Of a stretch of DNA of 25,910 nt, positions 5,106 to 14,313 are shown piece by piece (position 1 is the first letter of the stretch; every line of letters begins with the position of its first letter). The position numbers were made by a program, and so were the translations under genes. The notes under the pieces were generated by a model that was not told where the DNA came from, did no database searches, and saw nothing but the letters and a program-made list of their open reading frames with translations. Origin of the DNA: Burkholderiales bacterium (GTDB lineage Bacteria > Pseudomonadota > Gammaproteobacteria > Burkholderiales > SG8-39); assembly GCA_041568535.1 (NCBI GenBank), contig JBFFZT010000001.1, positions 1-25,910 of the forward strand, written 5' to 3'.

Positions 5106-5477
5106 ATGGCCAACCCCGCACCCGGATTCAGGAAGACCCCGCGCAGCCACATCGTCACGCGCCCGGCCGGAAAGCGCGTGCGCGTGACGCTTGGCGCCGA
5201 GTTGCTCGCCGATTCGCGCGACGCGCTCGAGATGCGCGAGGGCAGCTACCCGCCCGTGTACTACGTGCCGCGCAAGGACGTGAAGATGGAGCGCCTCGTG
5301 CGCACCGCGCACGCGACGCACTGCCCCTACAAGGGCGACGCCTCGTACTTCTCGATCGTGGACGGACCCGAGAACGCGGTCTGGAGCTACGAGCAGCCCT
5401 ACGACGAGATGCGCGACATCCAGGATCTGCTCGCCTTCTACCCGAACAAGGTCGCGATCGCGCTCGGCGATGAGTAG
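5106..5477 (+). CDS. DUF427 domain protein
   Basis: EGSYPPVYYVPRKDV, THCPYKGDASYFS, NAVWSYEQP, LAFYPNKV are hallmark DUF427 motifs. Confidence 0.92.
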   Translation: MANPAPGFRKTPRSHIVTRPAGKRVRVTLGAELLADSRDALEMREGSYPPVYYVPRKDVKMERLVRTAHATHCPYKGDASYFSIVDGPENAVWSYEQPYDEMRDIQDLLAFYPNKVAIALGDE

Positions 5478-6993
5478 GGCGACGCGCCGCGAGTGGATCG
5501 GGCTCGCGGTGATTGCGCTGCCGTGCATGCTGTACTCGATGGACCTGACGGTCCTCAACCTCGCGGTGCCCAAGCTGAGCGCCGCGCTGGCGCCGAGCAG
5601 CGCGCAACTGCTGTGGATCGTGGACATCTACGGGTTCCTGGTCGCGGGCTCGCTCATCACCATGGGCACGCTGGGCGATCGCATCGGCCGGCGCCGGCTG
5701 CTGATGATCGGGGCGGCGGCGTTCGGCGCCGCCTCGGTGCTCGCCGCGTTCTCGAGCAGCCCGGCGATGCTGATCGCGGCCCGCGCGCTGCTCGGCGTCG
5801 CGGGGGCGACGCTCGCGCCCTCCACCCTGTCCCTGATCCGCAACATGTTCCACGACGCGCACGAGCGCACCGTGGCGGTGAGCGTCTGGATTATGAGCTA
5901 CTCCGCGGGCGCGGCCATCGGCCCGCTGGTGGGCGGCGCGCTGCTCGAGTACTTCTGGTGGGGCTCGGTGTTCCTCATCAACGTGCCGGTGATGCTGCTG
6001 CTGCTCGCGCTCGCGCCGGTGCTCCTCCCCGAATCGCGCGACCCGCACGCGGGCCGGCTCGACGTGGCCAGTGCGGCACAATCATTGCTTGCGGTGCTGG
6101 CCGTGATCTACGGCTTGAAGCGCATCGCCGAGGACGGCGCGGCATGGTTGCCCGCCGCGGTGATCGTGGCGGGCATCGCGGTCGGCGTCGCCTTCGTGCG
6201 TCGCCAGCGCCGGCTGCCCGACCCGCTGATCGACCTGCGGCTGTTCCGCATCCCCGCGTTCAGCGCGGCCATCGCCACCAACATCCTGGGCTTTCTCGCC
6301 ACCTTCGGCACGTTCCTGTTCATCGCGCAGTACCTGCAGTCGGTGCTCGGCCTGTCGCCGCTGCGTGCCGGGCTGTGGAGCACGCCGGCCGCGTTCGCCT
6401 TCATCTTCGGCTCGATGGTGACGCCGGCGATCGTGCGCGCGTTCGCGCCGGCGACGGTCATCGCCGGCGGCATGCTGTTCTCGGCCGCGGGCTTCGTGGT
6501 ACTGGCGCAGGTGGGCGCGTCGGCGGCGCCGCTCGCCGTGCTGGTCGTCGGGTCGGTGGTGTTCTCGGCGGGCCTCACGCCGGTGGTCACGCTCACCACC
6601 GACCTCGTGCTCGGCGCCGCACCGCCCGAGCGCGCCGGGGCCGCGGCCTCGATCTCCGAGACCAGCTCGGAGCTCGGCGGCGCGCTTGGCATCGCGCTCC
6701 TCGGCAGCGTGATCACCGCGCTGTACGGCGGCGCCATGGCGGGGGTGGCGATGAACGGCGTGGCCGCGCAGGCGGCCGAGGCCGCGCGCGCGACGATCGG
6801 CGGCGCCGTATCGACGGCTGCGCTGCTCGCGCCGCCGGATGCCGCGGCGCTGCTCGGCGCGGCGCGCACGGCGTTCGCGCGCGCTTTCACGGTCACCGCG
6901 TATATCGGCGCCGGCATCTCCGCCGTCGTTGCGCTCCTCGCCGTGGTGCTGCTGCGCGGCGTGCGCGCAGTCCCGCATCCGGCGCAGGCTTGA
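5470..6993 (+). CDS. MFS drug:H+ antiporter, 14-TMS DHA2 (EmrB/QacA/SmvA-like) family
   Basis: 507 hydrophobic aa with MDLTVLNLAVPKL, WIVDIYG, motif A GTLGDRIGRRRLL, GPLVGGALLEYFWWGSVFLINVPV, ETSSELGGALGIALLGS. Overlaps the DUF427 stop by 8 nt. Confidence 0.93.
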   Translation: MSRATRREWIGLAVIALPCMLYSMDLTVLNLAVPKLSAALAPSSAQLLWIVDIYGFLVAGSLITMGTLGDRIGRRRLLMIGAAAFGAASVLAAFSSSPAMLIAARALLGVAGATLAPSTLSLIRNMFHDAHERTVAVSVWIMSYSAGAAIGPLVGGALLEYFWWGSVFLINVPVMLLLLALAPVLLPESRDPHAGRLDVASAAQSLLAVLAVIYGLKRIAEDGAAWLPAAVIVAGIAVGVAFVRRQRRLPDPLIDLRLFRIPAFSAAIATNILGFLATFGTFLFIAQYLQSVLGLSPLRAGLWSTPAAFAFIFGSMVTPAIVRAFAPATVIAGGMLFSAAGFVVLAQVGASAAPLAVLVVGSVVFSAGLTPVVTLTTDLVLGAAPPERAGAAASISETSSELGGALGIALLGSVITALYGGAMAGVAMNGVAAQAAEAARATIGGAVSTAALLAPPDAAALLGAARTAFARAFTVTAYIGAGISAVVALLAVVLLRGVRAVPHPAQA

Positions 6994-7037
6994 TGTTTCC
7001 GTCGAGGCGCTGCGCGCTCGGCGGCTGAGCGGGCCGC

Positions 7038-8129
7038 CTAGACCTTGCGCACGCTGAGCAGGTAGTCGTAGCCCGTGGCTTCGGTGCGCAGCGAGATCTC
7101 GGCGCCGACGAGGCCCTCGGTCCAGGCGAGCACGCTCTCGGCGGAGCGGTAGCGCAGCGACCAGTCGGCGATCATCTCGAGCGGCCACAGCATGTCGGTG
7201 CCGGACTTCATGTTGCCGAGGAGCAGCATGCCCCCGGGCCGCAGGGTCTCGTAGAGGCGGCGCGTCAGCACCTGGCAGGTGCGGTCGCTGAAGTAGTCGA
7301 ACAGCCCCGCGCGGTAGATCAGGTCGGACGGCGGCAGCAGCGACGAGGGATCGACTTCGCGCAGCAGCCGCAGCACCGAGATATGCCGCATCTCGATGCG
7401 CGCCGCGCCGTTCGCCGGCCCTTCGCAAACCGCCCTGGAGAGTTGTCGGCCGGCAAAGCACAGTGCGTCGCCATCCTGGTCCAGCAGGAAAAAGCGCGTG
7501 GCCCGCGCCGCGAGCGGATCGTGCGCGAGGAACTCCGTGACCTCGCGGGCCGGCCCGCAGCCCAGGCTCGCGATGACGCAGGGGTCGGAACCGCCGTGCC
7601 TCGCGACGGCCTCGCCGATCGCCTGGCGCACGAGGTCCTTGCGCTTCACCACGAACTGGCCGATGTGCACCGCGAGCTCGTGCGCGACGGCGCCGAAGCT
7701 CGTATCGCCCTCCGGCGCGCCGTCGTACATGTAGTTCATCGCCACGTAGTCGCCGGGGTAGCCGAGCGGCTTGGTGTACGCCTGGCGCCACAGCGGCGCG
7801 CCCATCAGCTCGGGCGTCAGGTGCGCCTCGGTGTAGTCCTTGGCCAGGCCCAGGTGCTGCGGCGTCGCGGCGATTTCCGGCAGGCACGCCGCCGCGTCCG
7901 CCCAGGCGACGCGCCAGTCGTTCCACAGATCGCGCGTGATGGCGCCGATGACGGGGTCGGCGACCGCGCCCGCGATCTGCGGGCCCGCCGAGCGCAGCCG
8001 CGCCTTGGTGGCGAGGAGCAGCTCGACCGTCCGGTCCACCACCTCGCGGTACTCGGGGCACAGCCAGCCCGCCGCGCGGGCGACCTGCGGCGCAAGGACA
8101 GCGCGCGTGCGTTCGATGTTCGCGTCCAT
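7038..8129 (-). CDS. Class I SAM-dependent methyltransferase, PhcB-like
   Basis: SAM motif IASLGCGPAREV, acidic LLDQD, DLIYRAGLFDYF, LRPGGMLLLGN, DWSLRYRS, plus AYTKPLGYPGDYVAMNYMY. I recall the last motif from PhcB-type methyltransferases. The methyltransferase call is firm; the PhcB subfamily call is less so. Confidence 0.8.
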   Translation of the reverse strand: MDANIERTRAVLAPQVARAAGWLCPEYREVVDRTVELLLATKARLRSAGPQIAGAVADPVIGAITRDLWNDWRVAWADAAACLPEIAATPQHLGLAKDYTEAHLTPELMGAPLWRQAYTKPLGYPGDYVAMNYMYDGAPEGDTSFGAVAHELAVHIGQFVVKRKDLVRQAIGEAVARHGGSDPCVIASLGCGPAREVTEFLAHDPLAARATRFFLLDQDGDALCFAGRQLSRAVCEGPANGAARIEMRHISVLRLLREVDPSSLLPPSDLIYRAGLFDYFSDRTCQVLTRRLYETLRPGGMLLLGNMKSGTDMLWPLEMIADWSLRYRSAESVLAWTEGLVGAEISLRTEATGYDYLLSVRKV

Positions 8130-8130
8130 C

Positions 8131-9429
8131 TCAGATCGCCTTTACCGGCCGCGCACCTGCCGGGTCGTGCGCCGCGTCGCTGACTACGCGCAGGCCCGCG
8201 CCGGCCGCCACCTTGCGGCCGGTCAGCAGGTAGGCGTTGATCTGCTCGCCGTGCTTCAGCGTCAGCGTGCCGCGCTCCTGGAACTCGTACTTGTTGCGCA
8301 GCCGCCAGTAGGTCGTCTCCGACACCTGGATGGCGCCCGGAATGCCCTCCTGCTGCAGGCGGCTGGCGTCGTTGACCGGCCCGCCCCACAGGTCGAAGAT
8401 CGGCACGTGGGTGCCGATCACGCCGGAGACGAGCGACCCGGTGCTCATGCCGATGCGCACCTGCAGCGGCAGGTCGTTTTCCTCGGCGTAGCTGCGCACG
8501 AAGGCGAGCGCCTCGATGGCGAACTCGGCCATTGCCTCGGCGTTCTTTGGCGAAGGCGAGCGCACGCCGGCGACCGCCATGTAGCTGTCGCCGATGGTCT
8601 TGACCTTCTCGACCCCGCGCTGGTCCGAGATCTCGTCGAAGCGGTTGAAGATGACGCCCAGCACCTCGACCACGTGGCCCGGCGCCATGCGGTGCGTGAG
8701 CGAAGTGAAGCCGACGATGTCGGCGAACAGCACGGTGGCCTCGCCGACCGCCTCAGCGATGGTGCGCTCGCCGTCGCGCAGCCGGCTCATGATGCGGTCG
8801 GGCAGGAAGTTGCGCAGCAGCGTCTCGCTCGCCTGCTTGTCGGTGCGCAGGTCCTCCTCGAGCGCGTAGGCGTGGCGTTCCGTCCACTCGAGCAGCGCCG
8901 TGTAGATCAGGCCGATGGCCGACGCGGCCACCAGGAAGACGTTGGTGTTGAGGAACTGGAACGTGCTCGCGCCGGTGGCGAGCAGCAGCACGTTGGCCAG
9001 CGCGATGATGGTGCAGCAGGCGATGAACGCCGCGCTGAACAGCAGGCGGATGGCGCCGCAGGCATACATGATGACCAGCAGCAGCCCGGGCACGCCGTAG
9101 GTGAAGCCGTGCGGCAGGATGGCGAGCACCAGGGCGATGCCCGCGGCGCCGAGGATCACGGTGGCGCACAGCACGCTCTGCGACCAGCGCTCGAAGGATT
9201 TCAGGAACGTGAAGCCGAAGACGGCAACGGCGAAGAAGCTGAACGGCAGGCGCACGCTCAGCGTGTAGAGCAGCGCGTCGGGAGCGATGCTGTAATCCCA
9301 GGCGAGGAACAGCAGGTAGAGCGTCGCCGCGACGGGCAGCGAAACGCGGATGAACGGAATCGAGCGTTCCGCGTAGCGCGCGCGGAAACGGGCTTCCTTG
9401 TCGCCTTCGAATCGGGCCAGTCCAGGCAT
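8131..9429 (-). CDS. Membrane-anchored class III adenylate cyclase (about 6 TM, helical linker, catalytic domain)
   Basis: About six hydrophobic segments in the first ~180 aa, linker SETLLRNFLPDRIMSRL, then VLFADIVGFT, EKVKTIGDSYM, RIGMSTG, FDLWGGPVNDASRL. Both metal Asp, the ATP-specifying Lys/Asp and the Asn/Arg pair are present. SD GAGGTGAGG upstream. Confidence 0.93.
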   Translation of the reverse strand: MPGLARFEGDKEARFRARYAERSIPFIRVSLPVAATLYLLFLAWDYSIAPDALLYTLSVRLPFSFFAVAVFGFTFLKSFERWSQSVLCATVILGAAGIALVLAILPHGFTYGVPGLLLVIMYACGAIRLLFSAAFIACCTIIALANVLLLATGASTFQFLNTNVFLVAASAIGLIYTALLEWTERHAYALEEDLRTDKQASETLLRNFLPDRIMSRLRDGERTIAEAVGEATVLFADIVGFTSLTHRMAPGHVVEVLGVIFNRFDEISDQRGVEKVKTIGDSYMAVAGVRSPSPKNAEAMAEFAIEALAFVRSYAEENDLPLQVRIGMSTGSLVSGVIGTHVPIFDLWGGPVNDASRLQQEGIPGAIQVSETTYWRLRNKYEFQERGTLTLKHGEQINAYLLTGRKVAAGAGLRVVSDAAHDPAGARPVKAI

Positions 9430-9454
9430 CGCCTCACCTCGATGCAGGTACCCA

Positions 9455-9490
9455 CTGACGCTAGTCCGGCAGGTGCCGGACGATCGTCAG
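9455..9490. other. 36-nt imperfect inverted repeat in the intergenic region 5' of the cyclase
   Basis: CTGACG-CTAG-TCCGGC-AGGT-GCCGGA-CGAT-CGTCAG pairs at 14 of 16 stem positions. No U-tract follows on the - strand. Confidence 0.7.
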
Positions 9491-9514
9491 AGAACGTGAC
9501 CAGCGTGCACTAAG

Positions 9515-10354
9515 TCACGTCGGCGCGCGTAAGGATTTGCCTGATATGGGACTCAGGAAATACGCATCCATGGCGAGCACGCCCCCTTCCACGTGCTCGA
9601 GGAGGCGCTCGGCGCGCGCATCGCGCCCCGCCGCGCCCAGCGCCACGAACAGGGGCAGGAAATGCTCCTCGCTCGGGTGCGCGCGCACCCCCGCCGGCGA
9701 GAGCCGGCGGTAGTCGGCGAGCCGGTCGTAGTCGTGCGCTTCGATGCACTTGCGCACCCAGTCCTGGAACTCGCTTACGTAGGGCGCGCCGCCCCCGACG
9801 CCCGTATCGCGCACGCTGCGCAGCTCGCGCAGGTTGTGCGTGAGATGCCCGGAGCCGATGATCAGCACCCCTTCGCGCGCGAGTGGCGCGAGCGCGGCGC
9901 CGAGCGCAAGGTGGTGGCGCGGGCCGAGCGCCGTCTGCACCGAGACCTGCACCACCGGCACGCTGGCCTGCGGGTACATATACAGCAGCGGCGTCCAGGC
10001 GCCGTGATCGAGGCCGCGCTGCGCATCGATCGACGCCTCCAGGCCCGCGGCGGCGAGCAGCTGCTGCGCGCGCCGCGCGACCTCGGGCGCCCCCGGTGCC
10101 GGGTAACGGATCTCGTACAGGGGCTGCGGGAAGCCGTAGAAGTCGTGCATCGTTTCGGGATGCGCCGCGCCGGTCAGCGCCGGCCGGTCGGTTTCCCAGT
10201 GCGCCGAGGCGATGAGGAGGGCGCGCGGGCGGGGCAGACGCTCCCCCAGCGCCTTCCAGGCCCGGCCCGTCGCGCTGGCGCCCGCCTCCAGCGCGTGCAT
10301 CGGCGAGCCGTGCGAGATGAAGACCACGGGCAACGGCGCGCTAGACTCGCTCAT
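9515..10354 (-). CDS. DODA-type (class III, LigB/YgiD family) extradiol dioxygenase
   Basis: FISHGSPM, IASAHWET, HDFYGFPQPLYEIRYPAPG, RGLDHGAWTPL, IIGSGHLTHNL, RAHPSEEHFLPL. Confidence 0.92.
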   Translation of the reverse strand: MSESSAPLPVVFISHGSPMHALEAGASATGRAWKALGERLPRPRALLIASAHWETDRPALTGAAHPETMHDFYGFPQPLYEIRYPAPGAPEVARRAQQLLAAAGLEASIDAQRGLDHGAWTPLLYMYPQASVPVVQVSVQTALGPRHHLALGAALAPLAREGVLIIGSGHLTHNLRELRSVRDTGVGGGAPYVSEFQDWVRKCIEAHDYDRLADYRRLSPAGVRAHPSEEHFLPLFVALGAAGRDARAERLLEHVEGGVLAMDAYFLSPISGKSLRAPT

Positions 10355-10377
10355 TGAAGGGAATTCTCGCAGAAACG

Positions 10378-11199
10378 ATGAGGCACTGGCCGGTCCTGCT
10401 GTGCATGCTCGCCGCGCTGCCCGCCGCGGCGCAGGACAAGCCGCGCCCGGACGTGATGGAGACCTTCACCGTCAACCAGGACCGGGAAGGGTTCGAGCCG
10501 CCGCTCACCGAGAACGAGCCGGTCTATTTCGTCATGGGCGCGCGCGGCGGCACCAACGCGCGCTTTCAGCTGTCGTTCAAGTACCGGCTGTTCGACCGCG
10601 GGCTGGGGTGGGGCAGCGATCAGCCCTGGCTGGCCGGCTTTTACTTCGGCTACACCCAGACCTCGCTGTGGAACCTGTCCGGCGATTCCAAGCCGTTCCG
10701 CGACACGAGCTACCGGCCGTCGTTGTTCTGGGCCTGGAAGCGCACCGACGACAAGACCTGGATCGACGCGGCGCGCGCCGGTTTCGAGCACGAGTCGAAC
10801 GGCCGCGACGGCGCGGAGTCGCGCTCCATCGACGTCGCCTTTGTGCGCCCGGAGTGGCACTGGGACCTCGACAACGGCAAGCGGCTGGAATTCACGCCGA
10901 AGGCCTACGGCTATATCGACAAGCAGGAGAATCCCGATATCCAGAGGTACCGCGGCTACGTCGACTGGCAGCTGCGCTATGGCGATGAAGTGCGCAGCTG
11001 GCGCGCCATGGCGCGGCTCGGCACGGCGGGCAAGGGCAGCCTGACGCTGGACTGGTTCGAGCGCACGCGCGTGCTCGGCTTTGGCCCGGTGTCAGGCTAC
11101 TTCCACGTGCAGTTCTTCGCCGGCTACGGCGAGGACATCCTCGACTACGATCGGCGCTTCAAGTCGCAGCTGCGCCTGGGCTTCGCCATCGTGCCCTAG
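10378..11199 (+). CDS. pldA: Outer-membrane phospholipase A (OMPLA/PldA family)
   Basis: Signal peptide MRHWPVLLCMLAALPAAA, RFQLSFKY, YFGYTQTSLW, PFRDTSYRP, catalytic FEHESNG, GYGEDILDY and a beta-barrel-type C-terminus (LGFAIVP). A TTG at 10354 is an alternative start. Confidence 0.9.
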   Translation: MRHWPVLLCMLAALPAAAQDKPRPDVMETFTVNQDREGFEPPLTENEPVYFVMGARGGTNARFQLSFKYRLFDRGLGWGSDQPWLAGFYFGYTQTSLWNLSGDSKPFRDTSYRPSLFWAWKRTDDKTWIDAARAGFEHESNGRDGAESRSIDVAFVRPEWHWDLDNGKRLEFTPKAYGYIDKQENPDIQRYRGYVDWQLRYGDEVRSWRAMARLGTAGKGSLTLDWFERTRVLGFGPVSGYFHVQFFAGYGEDILDYDRRFKSQLRLGFAIVP

Positions 11200-11211
11200 C
11201 GCGCACCGCCC

Positions 11212-11715
11212 TCAGGTGGTCGACGGCCGCCAGGTATAGGGCACGGGGCCCGCCGCGCGCAGTACGCGGATCATGCGCAGCGCCGCCTCGCGGCCGCGGT
11301 AGTAGCCGGGCACGACGATGGTCTCGTCGAAGCCCATGGCGCGGTAGAAGCCGCGCGCCGCTTCGTTGCCGGCGCGCAGCTCCAGGTGCAGGCTGGCGAT
11401 GCCGGCGGTGCGCGCCGATTCCACCAGCCATTCCACCAGGCGCCGGCCGATGCCCATGCGCCGCTGCGCGGGACGCACCGCGAGCAGCACGAGGTGCGCG
11501 CGCTCGTCGCCGAACTCCATGATGGCGAACCCGGCGATGCGCCCGCGGTCGCAGGCCACCGGCGTCAGCGTGTCGGGATTGCGGATCGCTTTCAGGATGC
11601 GCGCGGCATCGTACTTCCAGCCCAGTCCGGATTCGACCAGGTCGCGCGACATGAGCGCGATCGCCTGTGCGTCGCGTTGTCCGGCGAGCCTGACCGAAAT
11701 GGCGTGCGCGGTCAT
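11212..11715 (-). CDS. GNAT acetyltransferase, RimI-like
   Basis: HLVLLAVRPAQRRMGIGRRLV (acetyl-CoA-binding motif A), LELRAGNEAARGFYRAMGF, VPGYY. Confidence 0.88.
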   Translation of the reverse strand: MTAHAISVRLAGQRDAQAIALMSRDLVESGLGWKYDAARILKAIRNPDTLTPVACDRGRIAGFAIMEFGDERAHLVLLAVRPAQRRMGIGRRLVEWLVESARTAGIASLHLELRAGNEAARGFYRAMGFDETIVVPGYYRGREAALRMIRVLRAAGPVPYTWRPSTT

Positions 11716-11721
11716 GCGGGA

Positions 11722-11751
11722 AGTCTAATCGCAATCGCGGCGAATTGTCAT
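11722..11751 (-). promoter_or_regulatory. Sigma70-like promoter ATGACA-N18-TAGACT, 6 nt before the GNAT ATG
   Basis: On the - strand, -35-like ATGACA (11751-11746), -10 TAGACT (11727-11722), ATG at 11715. No SD. Confidence 0.6.
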
Positions 11752-11754
11752 CGG

Positions 11755-14313
11755 TCAGCCGGCCTCGGCGAAGCGCTCGCGGATGCGCACCGCGCGCTCC
11801 AGCCCGTCGGCGGCCTCCAGCACCTTGAGCCGCAGGTCCGGATCCAGCGTGCCGGCGAGGACGCGCTGCACCGCGGCGAGCGCCCGTGCGTCCCACTGGC
11901 CCGCCAGGAACGCGCCCAGCCAGTGCTCGACGAAGAAGATCTTGCGCTTGGCCTTGAGCTCGGGGAGCCGCGCCAGGGCCGCGCCGAGCAGGGGAGCGGT
12001 GTACGCCGCGTGCTCGGGCGCATTGAAGGGCGCAAGCGCTTCCTCGATCCAGCTCTCGGGAAGCTCGACGTCGCCCGCCAGCCGCCGGAACATGGCGCGC
12101 TTGGCTTCCGCGTCGGCGAGCGCGGCCGATGCCGCGAAGGCGTAGCGGCGCGCGTTGTCGCCGCGCTCGGCGGCCGCGGCCTCGGCAAGCAGGCGCGGGC
12201 CGTCGGGGTCGGCGCGCACCAGCAGCCGCGCGATGAGGCGGAAGCGGTCGCGCTCGCCGAGCTCGACGCCGGGCGCGGCGAGCGCGCCTTCCAGCAGCCG
12301 CTTCAGGTCGGTAAGCGCGTTGCCCGACCAGGCGAGCGCGATGAAGGCGCGCAGCATCAGGAGGCGCCGGCTCTCCGGCCCCTCGCCGAGCGCCGCGTCG
12401 AGCAGCGTGCGCTCCAGGCGCGGCGCGAGCCGGTCGCGCTGCGCGTCCGACAGGTAGCGCCGGAACGCCGCCTCGATGCGCGCCAGCAGCCCCGCGAGGA
12501 TCACGTCGTCGCTTTCCTCGGGCGCGAGCGCCAGCGCGAAGTCGATGAAGGCCGCGGGGGCGAGCTCGGCGTCGCGCACGCTTTCCCACAGCGCTTCGAC
12601 CAGCTGCGCGCGCAGCAGCCCGTCGGGCAGCGCGCGCGGCTCGGCGAGCAGCGCGTCGCGGCTCGCGGCATCGAGCAGGAACCGCCCGTAGCCGAAATCC
12701 CCCGCGTTGGGATAGCGCCAGCGCACCGGGCGCCGTCCGGCGGGTCCGGCAACCGTGGCGAGCGCGCGCTCGAGGCGCACCTCGGAGGTCATCACGCTGC
12801 CGTCGGCGGCGGCGGCCGCCACCACGAGCTTTTGCGGCCAGACGCCGCCCTGGCCGGCGGTGTCTTCCTGCACGAGCTGCACGCCGGCGCCGCTCTCGCG
12901 CAGCGTCACGGTGGGCAGGCCGCGCCGTTGCACCCAGGCCGCGGCCCAGGCCTGCAGGTCGCGCTGCTCGACGCGCTCGAAGGCGCGCACCAGGTCGCTC
13001 CAGTCCGCCGCGCCATAGGCGTGGCGGCGCAGGAAGTCGCGCATCGCGCGCCGGAACACGTGCTCGCCAAGATAGAACTCGGCCTGGCGCAGGACGGCCG
13101 GTCCCTTGGCGTACACGATCGCGCCGTAGGCGGACTTGGCCGCCGACAGGTTCGCCAGCGGCTGCCTGAGCGGCGTGGTGCCGGCGGTGGCATCGGTACG
13201 GTAGGCGCTCGCCTTGAGCGCGTGGAAGGCGCTCCAGGGCTCGAGCTCGGGCACGATCGCGGCGGCCGCCTTGGCCGCCATGAAGTTGGCGAAGCCTTCC
13301 TTCAGCCACAGGTCGTCGAACCAGCGCATGGTGACCAGGTTGCCGAACCACTGGTGCGAGGTTTCGTGGAAGATGAGCTGCGCGCGCCGCAGCAGGTCGG
13401 GGCGGCTCGGCGGATCGGGAAACAGGATCGATTGCTCGTTAAGAAACGTGGCGCCCGCATGCTCCATGCCGCCGTAGGCGAGCTCGGGCACCAGCACCAG
13501 GTCGTACTTGGCGAACGGGTAGGGCCGCGCGAACTCGGCCTCGAAGAACGCGAGCGCGAGGCGATTCAGGCGCAGCACCTCTGCGGCGTGCGCGCGCGCC
13601 CGCTCCAGCTGCGAGCGGCGCACGAACAGGCGCACCGGCTCGCCCGCCTGCGTCAGCTCCTCGAACGGGCCGGCGGCGAAGGCGAAAAGATAGGTCGAGA
13701 TCGGCTCGGTCTCGGCGAAGCGCACGCGGCCGGGCGCCTGTTCGAGCGCGGGCGCGTTCGACACCGCGCGCCAGTCCCGCGGCAGCCGCAGCGCGAGGCG
13801 AAAGCGCGCCTTGAGATCGGGCTGGTCGAAGCAGGGAAACACGCTGCTCGCATCCGCGGGCACGAACAGCGAGTACACGTAGCTCGAGCCGTCCTCGCGG
13901 TCGCGGTACACGGTGAGCGCGCTGCCGCCGACCGCGATCGGCGCGCTGAACTCCAGCTCGACGCGGTTCGCGCCGCGCCGCAGCGCATCGCGCGGCACGA
14001 TGAGGTGCTCCTTTTCGTGCCGCGCCTGCACCGGCTTGCCGTTGACGCGCAGGCGGCGCACCGGCGCGCCGCGCCAGTCGAGGATCAGGTCGACGCGGCG
14101 CGCGAGCGCCACCTGCAGCTCGAGGCGGCCGTCGGCGCGCTTGCGGCGCACGTCGAGCCGCAGGTCCAGGGCGTACGCGAGGTCGCGGTAGTGCTGCGTG
14201 CGCCAGCGCGCCAGCTCCAGCGACACGCCGGGCTCGAGCCGCGGGGCCGGCTGCCCGAACGCGGCGCCCGAATGCGCGGCCAGCAGAATCAGGAGGGCAG
14301 CCCCGGCGCGCAT
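11755..14313 (-). CDS. Secreted M1 family aminopeptidase (PepN-like, with C-terminal helical domain)
   Basis: Signal peptide MRAGAALLILLAAHSGAAFG, FPCFDQPDLKA, GGMEHAG (GAMEN equivalent), zinc motif HETSHQWFGNLVTMRWFDDLWLKEG, YAKG. The real start is ATG 14313, not 15672. Confidence 0.93.
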   Translation of the reverse strand: MRAGAALLILLAAHSGAAFGQPAPRLEPGVSLELARWRTQHYRDLAYALDLRLDVRRKRADGRLELQVALARRVDLILDWRGAPVRRLRVNGKPVQARHEKEHLIVPRDALRRGANRVELEFSAPIAVGGSALTVYRDREDGSSYVYSLFVPADASSVFPCFDQPDLKARFRLALRLPRDWRAVSNAPALEQAPGRVRFAETEPISTYLFAFAAGPFEELTQAGEPVRLFVRRSQLERARAHAAEVLRLNRLALAFFEAEFARPYPFAKYDLVLVPELAYGGMEHAGATFLNEQSILFPDPPSRPDLLRRAQLIFHETSHQWFGNLVTMRWFDDLWLKEGFANFMAAKAAAAIVPELEPWSAFHALKASAYRTDATAGTTPLRQPLANLSAAKSAYGAIVYAKGPAVLRQAEFYLGEHVFRRAMRDFLRRHAYGAADWSDLVRAFERVEQRDLQAWAAAWVQRRGLPTVTLRESGAGVQLVQEDTAGQGGVWPQKLVVAAAAADGSVMTSEVRLERALATVAGPAGRRPVRWRYPNAGDFGYGRFLLDAASRDALLAEPRALPDGLLRAQLVEALWESVRDAELAPAAFIDFALALAPEESDDVILAGLLARIEAAFRRYLSDAQRDRLAPRLERTLLDAALGEGPESRRLLMLRAFIALAWSGNALTDLKRLLEGALAAPGVELGERDRFRLIARLLVRADPDGPRLLAEAAAAERGDNARRYAFAASAALADAEAKRAMFRRLAGDVELPESWIEEALAPFNAPEHAAYTAPLLGAALARLPELKAKRKIFFVEHWLGAFLAGQWDARALAAVQRVLAGTLDPDLRLKVLEAADGLERAVRIRERFAEAG

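Follow-up and report, generated by a model that had tools for sequence, protein, structure and literature searches.

The window analyzed in this study is a stretch of 25,910 nucleotides (contig JBFFZT010000001.1 of assembly GCA_041568535.1, from a Burkholderiales bacterium), which carries on its minus strand a gene for a predicted membrane adenylate cyclase and, directly downstream, a gene for an S-adenosylmethionine (SAM)-dependent methyltransferase of the PhcB family. The reading that we favour, with slightly better than even confidence, is that the two gene products form a Phc-type make-and-sense pair, in which a self-made signal is read out as cyclic AMP (cAMP) and not through a phosphorelay. 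A synthase and receptor of this kind had been put forward in an original prediction made from the sequence alone. The pairing itself and the homology to PhcB were upheld by the present analysis, and the membrane domain of the cyclase was found to belong to the sensor family of PhcS, which supports the combination of synthase and receptor more strongly than the original prediction could. Membership of the PhcB clade and a membrane anchor of the Rv1625c type, on the other hand, were not supported.

The products of PhcB are methyl 3-hydroxymyristate or methyl 3-hydroxypalmitate. The former is made by PhcB and sensed by PhcS (PMC8578825, PMC11960443). The ligands of the six-helix membrane domains of adenylate cyclases are a long-standing question (PMC12414865), and synthetic chimeras are the sole proof of principle for a receptor function that is cited in a review of these domains from 2025. 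The main proof of principle so far is a synthetic chimera of a quorum sensor and a cyclase, in which CqsS was joined to Rv1625c and the product answered a lipophilic autoinducer (PMC4821796); since this chimera works, the coupling of a quorum sensor to a cyclase is physically feasible. The locus in the window would provide a natural cyclase with a domain of a quorum-sensor family and with the likely ligand-making enzyme encoded next to it, and both the ligand and the response could be found with two Escherichia coli clones. A literature search returned no paper in which PhcB is connected with an adenylate cyclase, or PhcS with MASE8, the Pfam family of the membrane domain.

The cyclase and the kinship of its membrane domain

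The cyclase gene (8131-9429, minus strand; 432 aa; stop codon at 8131-8133) is an open reading frame (ORF) with Pfam matches to MASE8 and Guanylate_cyc, and the methyltransferase gene (7038-8129, minus strand; 363 aa; stop codon at 7038-7040) encodes a short form of the PhcB-family class I SAM methyltransferases. The junction between the two (8127-8133, minus strand) reads cat-c-tca on the plus strand and TGA-G-ATG on the coding strand, and a single nucleotide separates the stop codon of the cyclase from the ATG of the methyltransferase, exactly as originally described. An AAGG lies 10-13 nt 5' of this ATG, and a Shine-Dalgarno-like AGGTGAGG (9432-9439, minus strand) stands directly 5' of the ATG of the cyclase, while a promoter scan of 6900-9700 found no promoter. 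Translational coupling as tight as this would lead to co-expression of the synthase and the receptor.

The membrane domain of the cyclase scores 44-47 bits against Pfam MASE8 (PF20968), for which the gathering cut-off is 26.2. The match covers residues 43-193 (8851-9303, minus strand), and hydrophobic spans extend over residues ~24-180. An anchor of the Rv1625c type, as originally proposed, was not supported by sequence: the sole solved chain found with the membrane domain, mycobacterial Cya (7yzi), gave an E value of 0.15, and the match covered the last helices and the linker only. Kinship was found instead to the sensor domain of PhcS. An iterated profile search of 94 loci translated in six frames, seeded with residues 1-205 of the cyclase, had found 82 open frames at convergence. 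Each locus represented contributed one frame, apart from L021 with two, and every frame adjoins a methyltransferase gene. Because iterated searches with membrane domains can drift, controls were run. A profile built from 63 sensor domains that included neither cyclase-type nor Burkholderiales PhcS-type sequences matched all ten PhcS-type domains (E 1e-36 to 1e-42) as well as all seven cyclase-type domains (E 1e-24 to 1e-29), and the window cyclase was its sole match among the 12,501 six-frame ORFs of its own genome. Furthermore, a profile of the PhcS side without cyclase-type sequences picked out the window cyclase (E 7.5e-14) and nothing else in that genome, and hhalign of two disjoint sets, one cyclase-like and the other PhcS-like, gave a probability of 100% and an E value of 7e-40 over 216 columns. 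From these comparisons, the membrane domain of the cyclase is judged to be homologous, remotely and via intermediates, to the sensor domain of PhcS-type kinases. Among the relatives with which a profile comparison had been suggested, PhcS was thus recovered.

The residues D45, R60 and G115 of the cyclase are invariant over all 80 sensor domains aligned. The columns at V101, G112 and F165 are occupied to at least 90% by M, Y and F, respectively, and only F165 is kept in the window cyclase. The PhcS side of the comparison is anchored by the Ralstonia locus L102, which is a member of the PhcS-like set. In the Janthinobacterium locus L099, the genes stand in a phcBSRQ-like order (464, 448, 365 and 337 aa), and the kinase is 92% identical to a protein named PhcS by NCBI. 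The Pfam MASE8 model itself recognizes 12 of the 80 partner sensor domains; it does not match the Janthinobacterium PhcS or the kinase of locus L003 at E 0.01, and the top NCBIfam matches for the PhcS proteins name no PhcS family.

The output of the window protein is a class III cyclase catalytic domain (residues 226-403; 8221-8754, minus strand), which matches Pfam Guanylate_cyc (PF00211) at E 5e-50; in the Pfam scan, the protein lacks a HisKA and HATPase_c transmitter. By alignment to the C1 and C2 domains of AC9, a complete catalytic set was assigned within the one chain, comprising D237 and D281 for the metal, K277 and D346 for the specification of ATP, N353 and R357 for the transition state, and R325. 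In class III cyclases, a lysine and an aspartate at the specificity positions are the mark of an adenylate cyclase, and their presence here argues for this activity. The best solved relatives are the catalytic domains of AC9, AC8 and mycobacterial Cya/Rv1625c, which argues for class IIIa. The protein is predicted on this basis to be a homodimer-type class IIIa adenylate cyclase that produces cAMP. Between the membrane and catalytic domains lies a helical linker (8755-8850, minus strand), which aligns to the linkers of Cya (7yzi) and AC9 and contains the cyclase-transducer-like motif LLRNFLP (residues 204-210). What had been read from the sequence beforehand, namely approximately six transmembrane helices (six hydrophobic spans lie between residues 24 and 180), an LLxNxLP linker and a full catalytic set including the ATP-specifying Lys and Asp, was confirmed throughout.

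The methyltransferase

The methyltransferase is a true homologue of PhcB, being 31% identical over 238 aa (E 6e-29) to the Ralstonia protein P0166 (470 aa), to which NCBI gives the name 'class I SAM-dependent methyltransferase PhcB'. The earlier description of the enzyme as PhcB-like holds in this sense, but it lies outside the PhcB clade and is without the N-terminal domain of PhcB, as set out below. The three motifs on which that description was based are present on the minus strand at residue 120 (KPLGYPGDY, 7746-7772), residue 188 (SLGCGPAREV, 7539-7568) and residue 274 (AGLFDY, 7293-7310). In the forms KPLGYxGDY, GCGPAxE and GLFDY, they show the strongest conservation of any motifs in the family, in which K120, P121, G123, G126 and D127 are invariant.

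Scans of the methyltransferase with Pfam and NCBIfam gave no match above threshold, and NCBIfam holds no family for it. A search of 5.8 billion proteins returned ~113 clusters at 50-99% identity, most of them of 350-370 aa and all of them from metagenomes or metagenome-assembled genomes (MAGs), mostly labelled Burkholderiales or Betaproteobacteria. Many of these close relatives carry the JGI label 'EF 3-hydroxypalmitic acid methyl ester biosynthesis protein'. The more distant relatives are 41-42% identical and mostly ~480-500 aa in length, and some contain a PilZ domain. The close family was not found in 400 other Burkholderiales genomes, 11 of which contain proteins that are 29-34% identical, in frames of 467-532 aa. 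In exact look-ups, the relatives from Janthinobacterium, Massilia, Paraburkholderia and Cupriavidus bear the name 'class I SAM-dependent methyltransferase', and a search of a plasmid collection yielded one Paraburkholderia phcB-like locus only, without informative names.

An AlphaFold model built on 44 family members (predicted local distance difference test score, pLDDT, 90.9) consists of an all-helical N-terminal cap (residues 1-177; 7599-8129, minus strand), in which the KPLGYPGDY motif is located, on a Rossmann-fold SAM-binding domain (residues 180-363; 7041-7592, minus strand) that contains D217. The best solved fold match (Z 20.3) is 3ocj, an uncharacterized Bordetella parapertussis protein from structural genomics described as a 'possible exported protein', which matches the whole methyltransferase including the helical cap at 18% identity. 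However, the sequence of 3ocj does not match the family profile significantly, and none of the solved structures is significantly similar in sequence to the family. The 50 best structural matches are mostly small-molecule methyltransferases (such as SgvM, CmoA and ChlM) and include a mycobacterial fatty-acid O-methyltransferase (Z 15.8); a few of them act on protein or tRNA. Similarity to CheR over the whole domain was not found: the sequence match to CheR1 is local (50-75 residues, E 0.005), and CheR is absent from these 50 folds.

Recurrence of the pair and the two phylogenies

In the clade to which the methyltransferase of the window belongs, ten loci have enough flanking sequence to be informative (the window, L001, L019-L022, L129, L130, the P0113 contig and L131), with methyltransferases 42-61% identical to that of the window. 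A gene for a MASE8-Guanylate_cyc protein lies directly upstream of the methyltransferase gene, on the same strand, in all ten, and the spacing ranges from an overlap of 8 nt to a distance of 20 nt. The recurrent pairs for which the original prediction had proposed to look are therefore real. An M1 peptidase, a GNAT acetyltransferase, a phospholipase A1 and a LigB dioxygenase stand in the same order beside the pair in L130 (1-3556) and in the window (9515-13351). On the other side of the pair, L130 encodes a 913-aa cyclase, whereas the window has an MFS transporter (5470-6993). As the flanking genes of the window are common to L130 only and not to the other loci, the pair itself is the conserved unit.

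For the wider family, one genome per species was scanned (185,579 genomes), which gave more than 590 methyltransferase relatives; the best 80 were kept with their flanks. These come from Alphaproteobacteria, Myxococcota, Verrucomicrobiota, Acidobacteriota, Planctomycetota and others. Among 93 loci in which a methyltransferase was matched, 81 have a sensor-domain gene adjoining this PhcB-family enzyme; at least six phyla and three gene orders are represented. In a Pfam scan downstream of the sensor in 83 genes, HisKA was found in 76, Response_reg in 30 and Guanylate_cyc in seven, with GGDEF and EAL together in one and SpoIIE in one. One subclade of alphaproteobacterial methyltransferases, from Parvibaculum or Parvibaculaceae MAGs (L040, L044 and L052), differs from its sisters in having no sensor gene up to 6 kb away.

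When 92 methyltransferase cores were placed on a tree, the six cyclase-linked enzymes formed one clade (support 100), sister (support 92) to an alphaproteobacterial clade in which the partner is a histidine kinase encoded convergently. Outside these two follows a clade of acidobacterial and myxobacterial sequences with an upstream hybrid kinase (support 99). The Ralstonia/Burkholderiales PhcB clade lies on the opposite side of the tree, together with sequences from Verrucomicrobiota and Planctomycetota. In the tree of the sensor domains, the cyclase type likewise groups with the alphaproteobacterial kinases (support 99) and then with the acidobacterial group (support 91), so that both trees show the same nesting. 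In L021 and L131, two loci of the clade, one methyltransferase stands between two sensors whose outputs differ, and the second sensor of each is placed with or beside the cyclase-type sensors. The matching nesting argues for joint inheritance of the synthase and the sensor domain, with exchange of the output domain, and L021 and L131 display this swap directly.

In L021 (4600-9031), from a MAG labelled Sideroxydans, a MASE8-cyclase is followed by the methyltransferase and then by a MASE8-GGDEF-EAL protein, and the outputs that flank the single synthase are predicted to be cAMP and cyclic di-GMP (c-di-GMP). In L131 (3951-7793), the order is a MASE8-cyclase, a 42%-identical methyltransferase and a MASE8-PAS-histidine kinase. 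The MASE8 region of the cyclase is split over two reading frames in L131 and in L130 (3603-3917 and 3845-5005), which could stem from a frameshift, from decay of the gene or from faulty assembly. L129 (1045-3582) alone among the loci has genes for an AMP-binding (acyl-activating) enzyme and a receiver-domain protein immediately upstream of the pair. Outside the clade, a 929-aa frame in a Myxococcaceae MAG (L094:6838-9624) combines the sensor, HisKA, HATPase, a receiver and a class III cyclase domain; this fusion is a second, independent route from a PhcS-like sensor to a cyclase.

MASE8 domains are also present in other proteins. In the same 400 Burkholderiales genomes, the six strongest Pfam MASE8 matches all lie on such other proteins. 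Pfam scans of seven MASE8 matches, which included four of these six, identified all seven as MASE8-GGDEF proteins, with or without PAS. In the sensor-domain tree, the MASE8-GGDEF proteins group next to the cyclase-type sensors on long branches (support 97). A MASE8-cyclase without the methyltransferase was not seen in the genomes searched. The MASE8-GGDEF proteins of L142-L150 and L152 may be 'solo' receptors or sensors of something else.

Interpretation and comparison with known systems

In the make-and-sense reading, the cytoplasmic methyltransferase would, by analogy to PhcB, transfer a methyl group from SAM to a small carboxylic acid, probably a lipid-like one, and its product would be a membrane-permeant methyl ester that accumulates. 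The homodimeric class IIIa cyclase would detect this ester inside the membrane with its six-helix MASE8/PhcS-type domain. From there, the signal would travel along the helix after the sixth transmembrane segment and the LLRNFLP transducer motif, reach the catalytic dimer and alter the synthesis of cAMP. The cAMP would in turn reach the many cyclic-nucleotide (cNMP)-binding proteins of the genome. We infer the small-molecule target, its identity, its binding by MASE8 and the sign of the effect on cAMP from the analogy, as probable parts of the model. The genome, a MAG of 2.56 Mb that is 79% complete, has 13 class III cyclase-domain matches and at least 12 cNMP-binding-domain matches (e.g. at C256:1776-2039 and C185:4414-4872), and its cyclic-nucleotide signalling is unusually dense for a MAG of this size.

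Several observations weigh against this reading. The clustering of the methyltransferase with PhcB that had been anticipated was not obtained, the two being on far sides of the tree. A tree constrained to unite the cyclase-linked proteins with the PhcB clade was worse by 142 log-likelihood units and was rejected by the approximately unbiased (AU) test at p 0.0003, in which the group tested had been chosen after the tree had been seen. Furthermore, a hidden Markov model of the ~100-aa N-terminal domain of the PhcB type recognized this domain in the branch of the family that comprises Burkholderiales, Verrucomicrobiota and Planctomycetota but found no match in the window methyltransferase or in its clade, and the window protein begins at the family core. 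As the enzyme is outside the PhcB clade and without this domain, its substrate may therefore differ. On the side of the receptor, direct comparisons were not significant: hhalign of the shallow alignments of cyclase-type and Burkholderiales PhcS-type sensors gave a probability of 14.6%, and BLASTP of the cyclase membrane domain against PhcS gave an E value of 1.9. The homology to PhcS therefore rests on the intermediate sequences and on the specificity control, and this dependence on intermediates is itself a point on the same side. In addition, most of the MASE8-GGDEF proteins that were scanned are in genomes in which the methyltransferase search found none, and the MASE8 domain therefore needs no adjoining synthase. 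Finally, we know of no structural demonstration that the ester binds directly to PhcS.

In an alternative reading, the methyltransferase might modify a ligand that is made elsewhere, for instance by methylating, and thereby inactivating or altering, a free fatty acid or another acid sensed by MASE8, and the pair would then be a sense-and-convert unit for quenching or adaptation. We regard this as unlikely, although the conserved adjacency and the matching trees would suit any enzyme acting on the ligand of the receptor, and the existence of MASE8-GGDEF proteins without the methyltransferase indicates that some MASE8 ligands do not come from an adjoining gene. In the sole characterized member of the family, however, the signal is the very compound that the methyltransferase makes (PMC8578825), and from PhcB to the clade of the window there is no change in the residues around the SAM site or in the KPLGYxGDY motif, which suggests the same type of reaction.

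A further alternative is that the methyltransferase acts on the sensor or on another protein in the manner of CheR and tunes the sensitivity of the receptor. The weak local match to CheR1 points in this direction, and co-diversification with a specific partner is equally to be expected of an enzyme and its protein substrate. We nevertheless consider it improbable: no CheR was found among the 50 best folds, most of which are small-molecule methyltransferases, the membrane domain is the sole part common to all partners while their outputs vary, and PhcB works through a diffusible ester (PMC8578825). That the two genes merely share an operon, with no functional link, is highly improbable in view of the adjacency in 10 of 10 clade loci and in 81 of 93 loci of the family, over at least six phyla and three gene orders, and of the congruence of the methyltransferase and sensor trees.

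Under the make-and-sense reading, a cAMP output is predicted to have been added to a Phc-like module of synthase and receptor. The literature treats Phc as a system of Ralstonia and Cupriavidus, whereas the present survey found a Phc-like module in many phyla. If the reading is true, Phc-type quorum sensing would be no peculiarity of Ralstonia, and the same methyl-ester signal would feed the synthesis of cAMP here and, in the sister loci, a phosphorelay or the turnover of c-di-GMP as well. We give an even chance to the wider proposal that the cyclase would be the first natural class III enzyme with a genetically assigned ligand for its anchor, and that a portable receptor would make Phc signalling widespread and its output swappable.

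The Ralstonia Phc system is similar in that a homologous six-helix sensor is encoded beside a SAM methyltransferase that is likewise homologous and has these invariant motifs in common, and the logic of a synthase adjoining its receptor is shared. It differs in its output, which is a histidine kinase there and a class IIIa cyclase in the window, where PhcR and PhcQ genes are absent. The gene order in the window is also reversed, with the receptor first, and the methyltransferase lacks the N-terminal domain of ~100 aa and belongs to another clade. The PilZ-fused methyltransferases of Parvibaculum and Sneathiella belong to the sister clade of both the methyltransferase and the sensor domain of the window. 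Unlike the window protein, they are ~480 aa in length with an N-terminal PilZ-type extension, and their partner is a histidine kinase encoded on the opposite strand. The MASE8-GGDEF proteins of Burkholderiales share the membrane domain family and are the nearest relatives of the sensor outside the methyltransferase-linked set, but their output is a diguanylate cyclase, and a query with the window protein found no PhcB-family methyltransferase in those genomes.

For Rv1625c, we know of no ligand or partner enzyme. Cya/Rv1625c of Mycobacterium tuberculosis (7yzi; PMC9433096) is likewise a homodimeric enzyme with six transmembrane helices and a class IIIa output, and its catalytic domain and linker are homologous to those of the window cyclase (E 3e-51), whereas the membrane domain is without detectable kinship in sequence. 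A parallel in architecture is the CqsS-Rv1625c chimera (Beltz, Bassler and Schultz 2016, PMC4821796), in which a six-helix quorum sensor, a transducer helix and a class IIIa catalytic domain are combined in the same manner and the synthesis of cAMP is under the control of the ligand. That protein is synthetic and couples CqsS to CAI-1, whereas the window cyclase is natural, has a sensor of the MASE8/PhcS type and is accompanied by a candidate synthase encoded 1 nt downstream.

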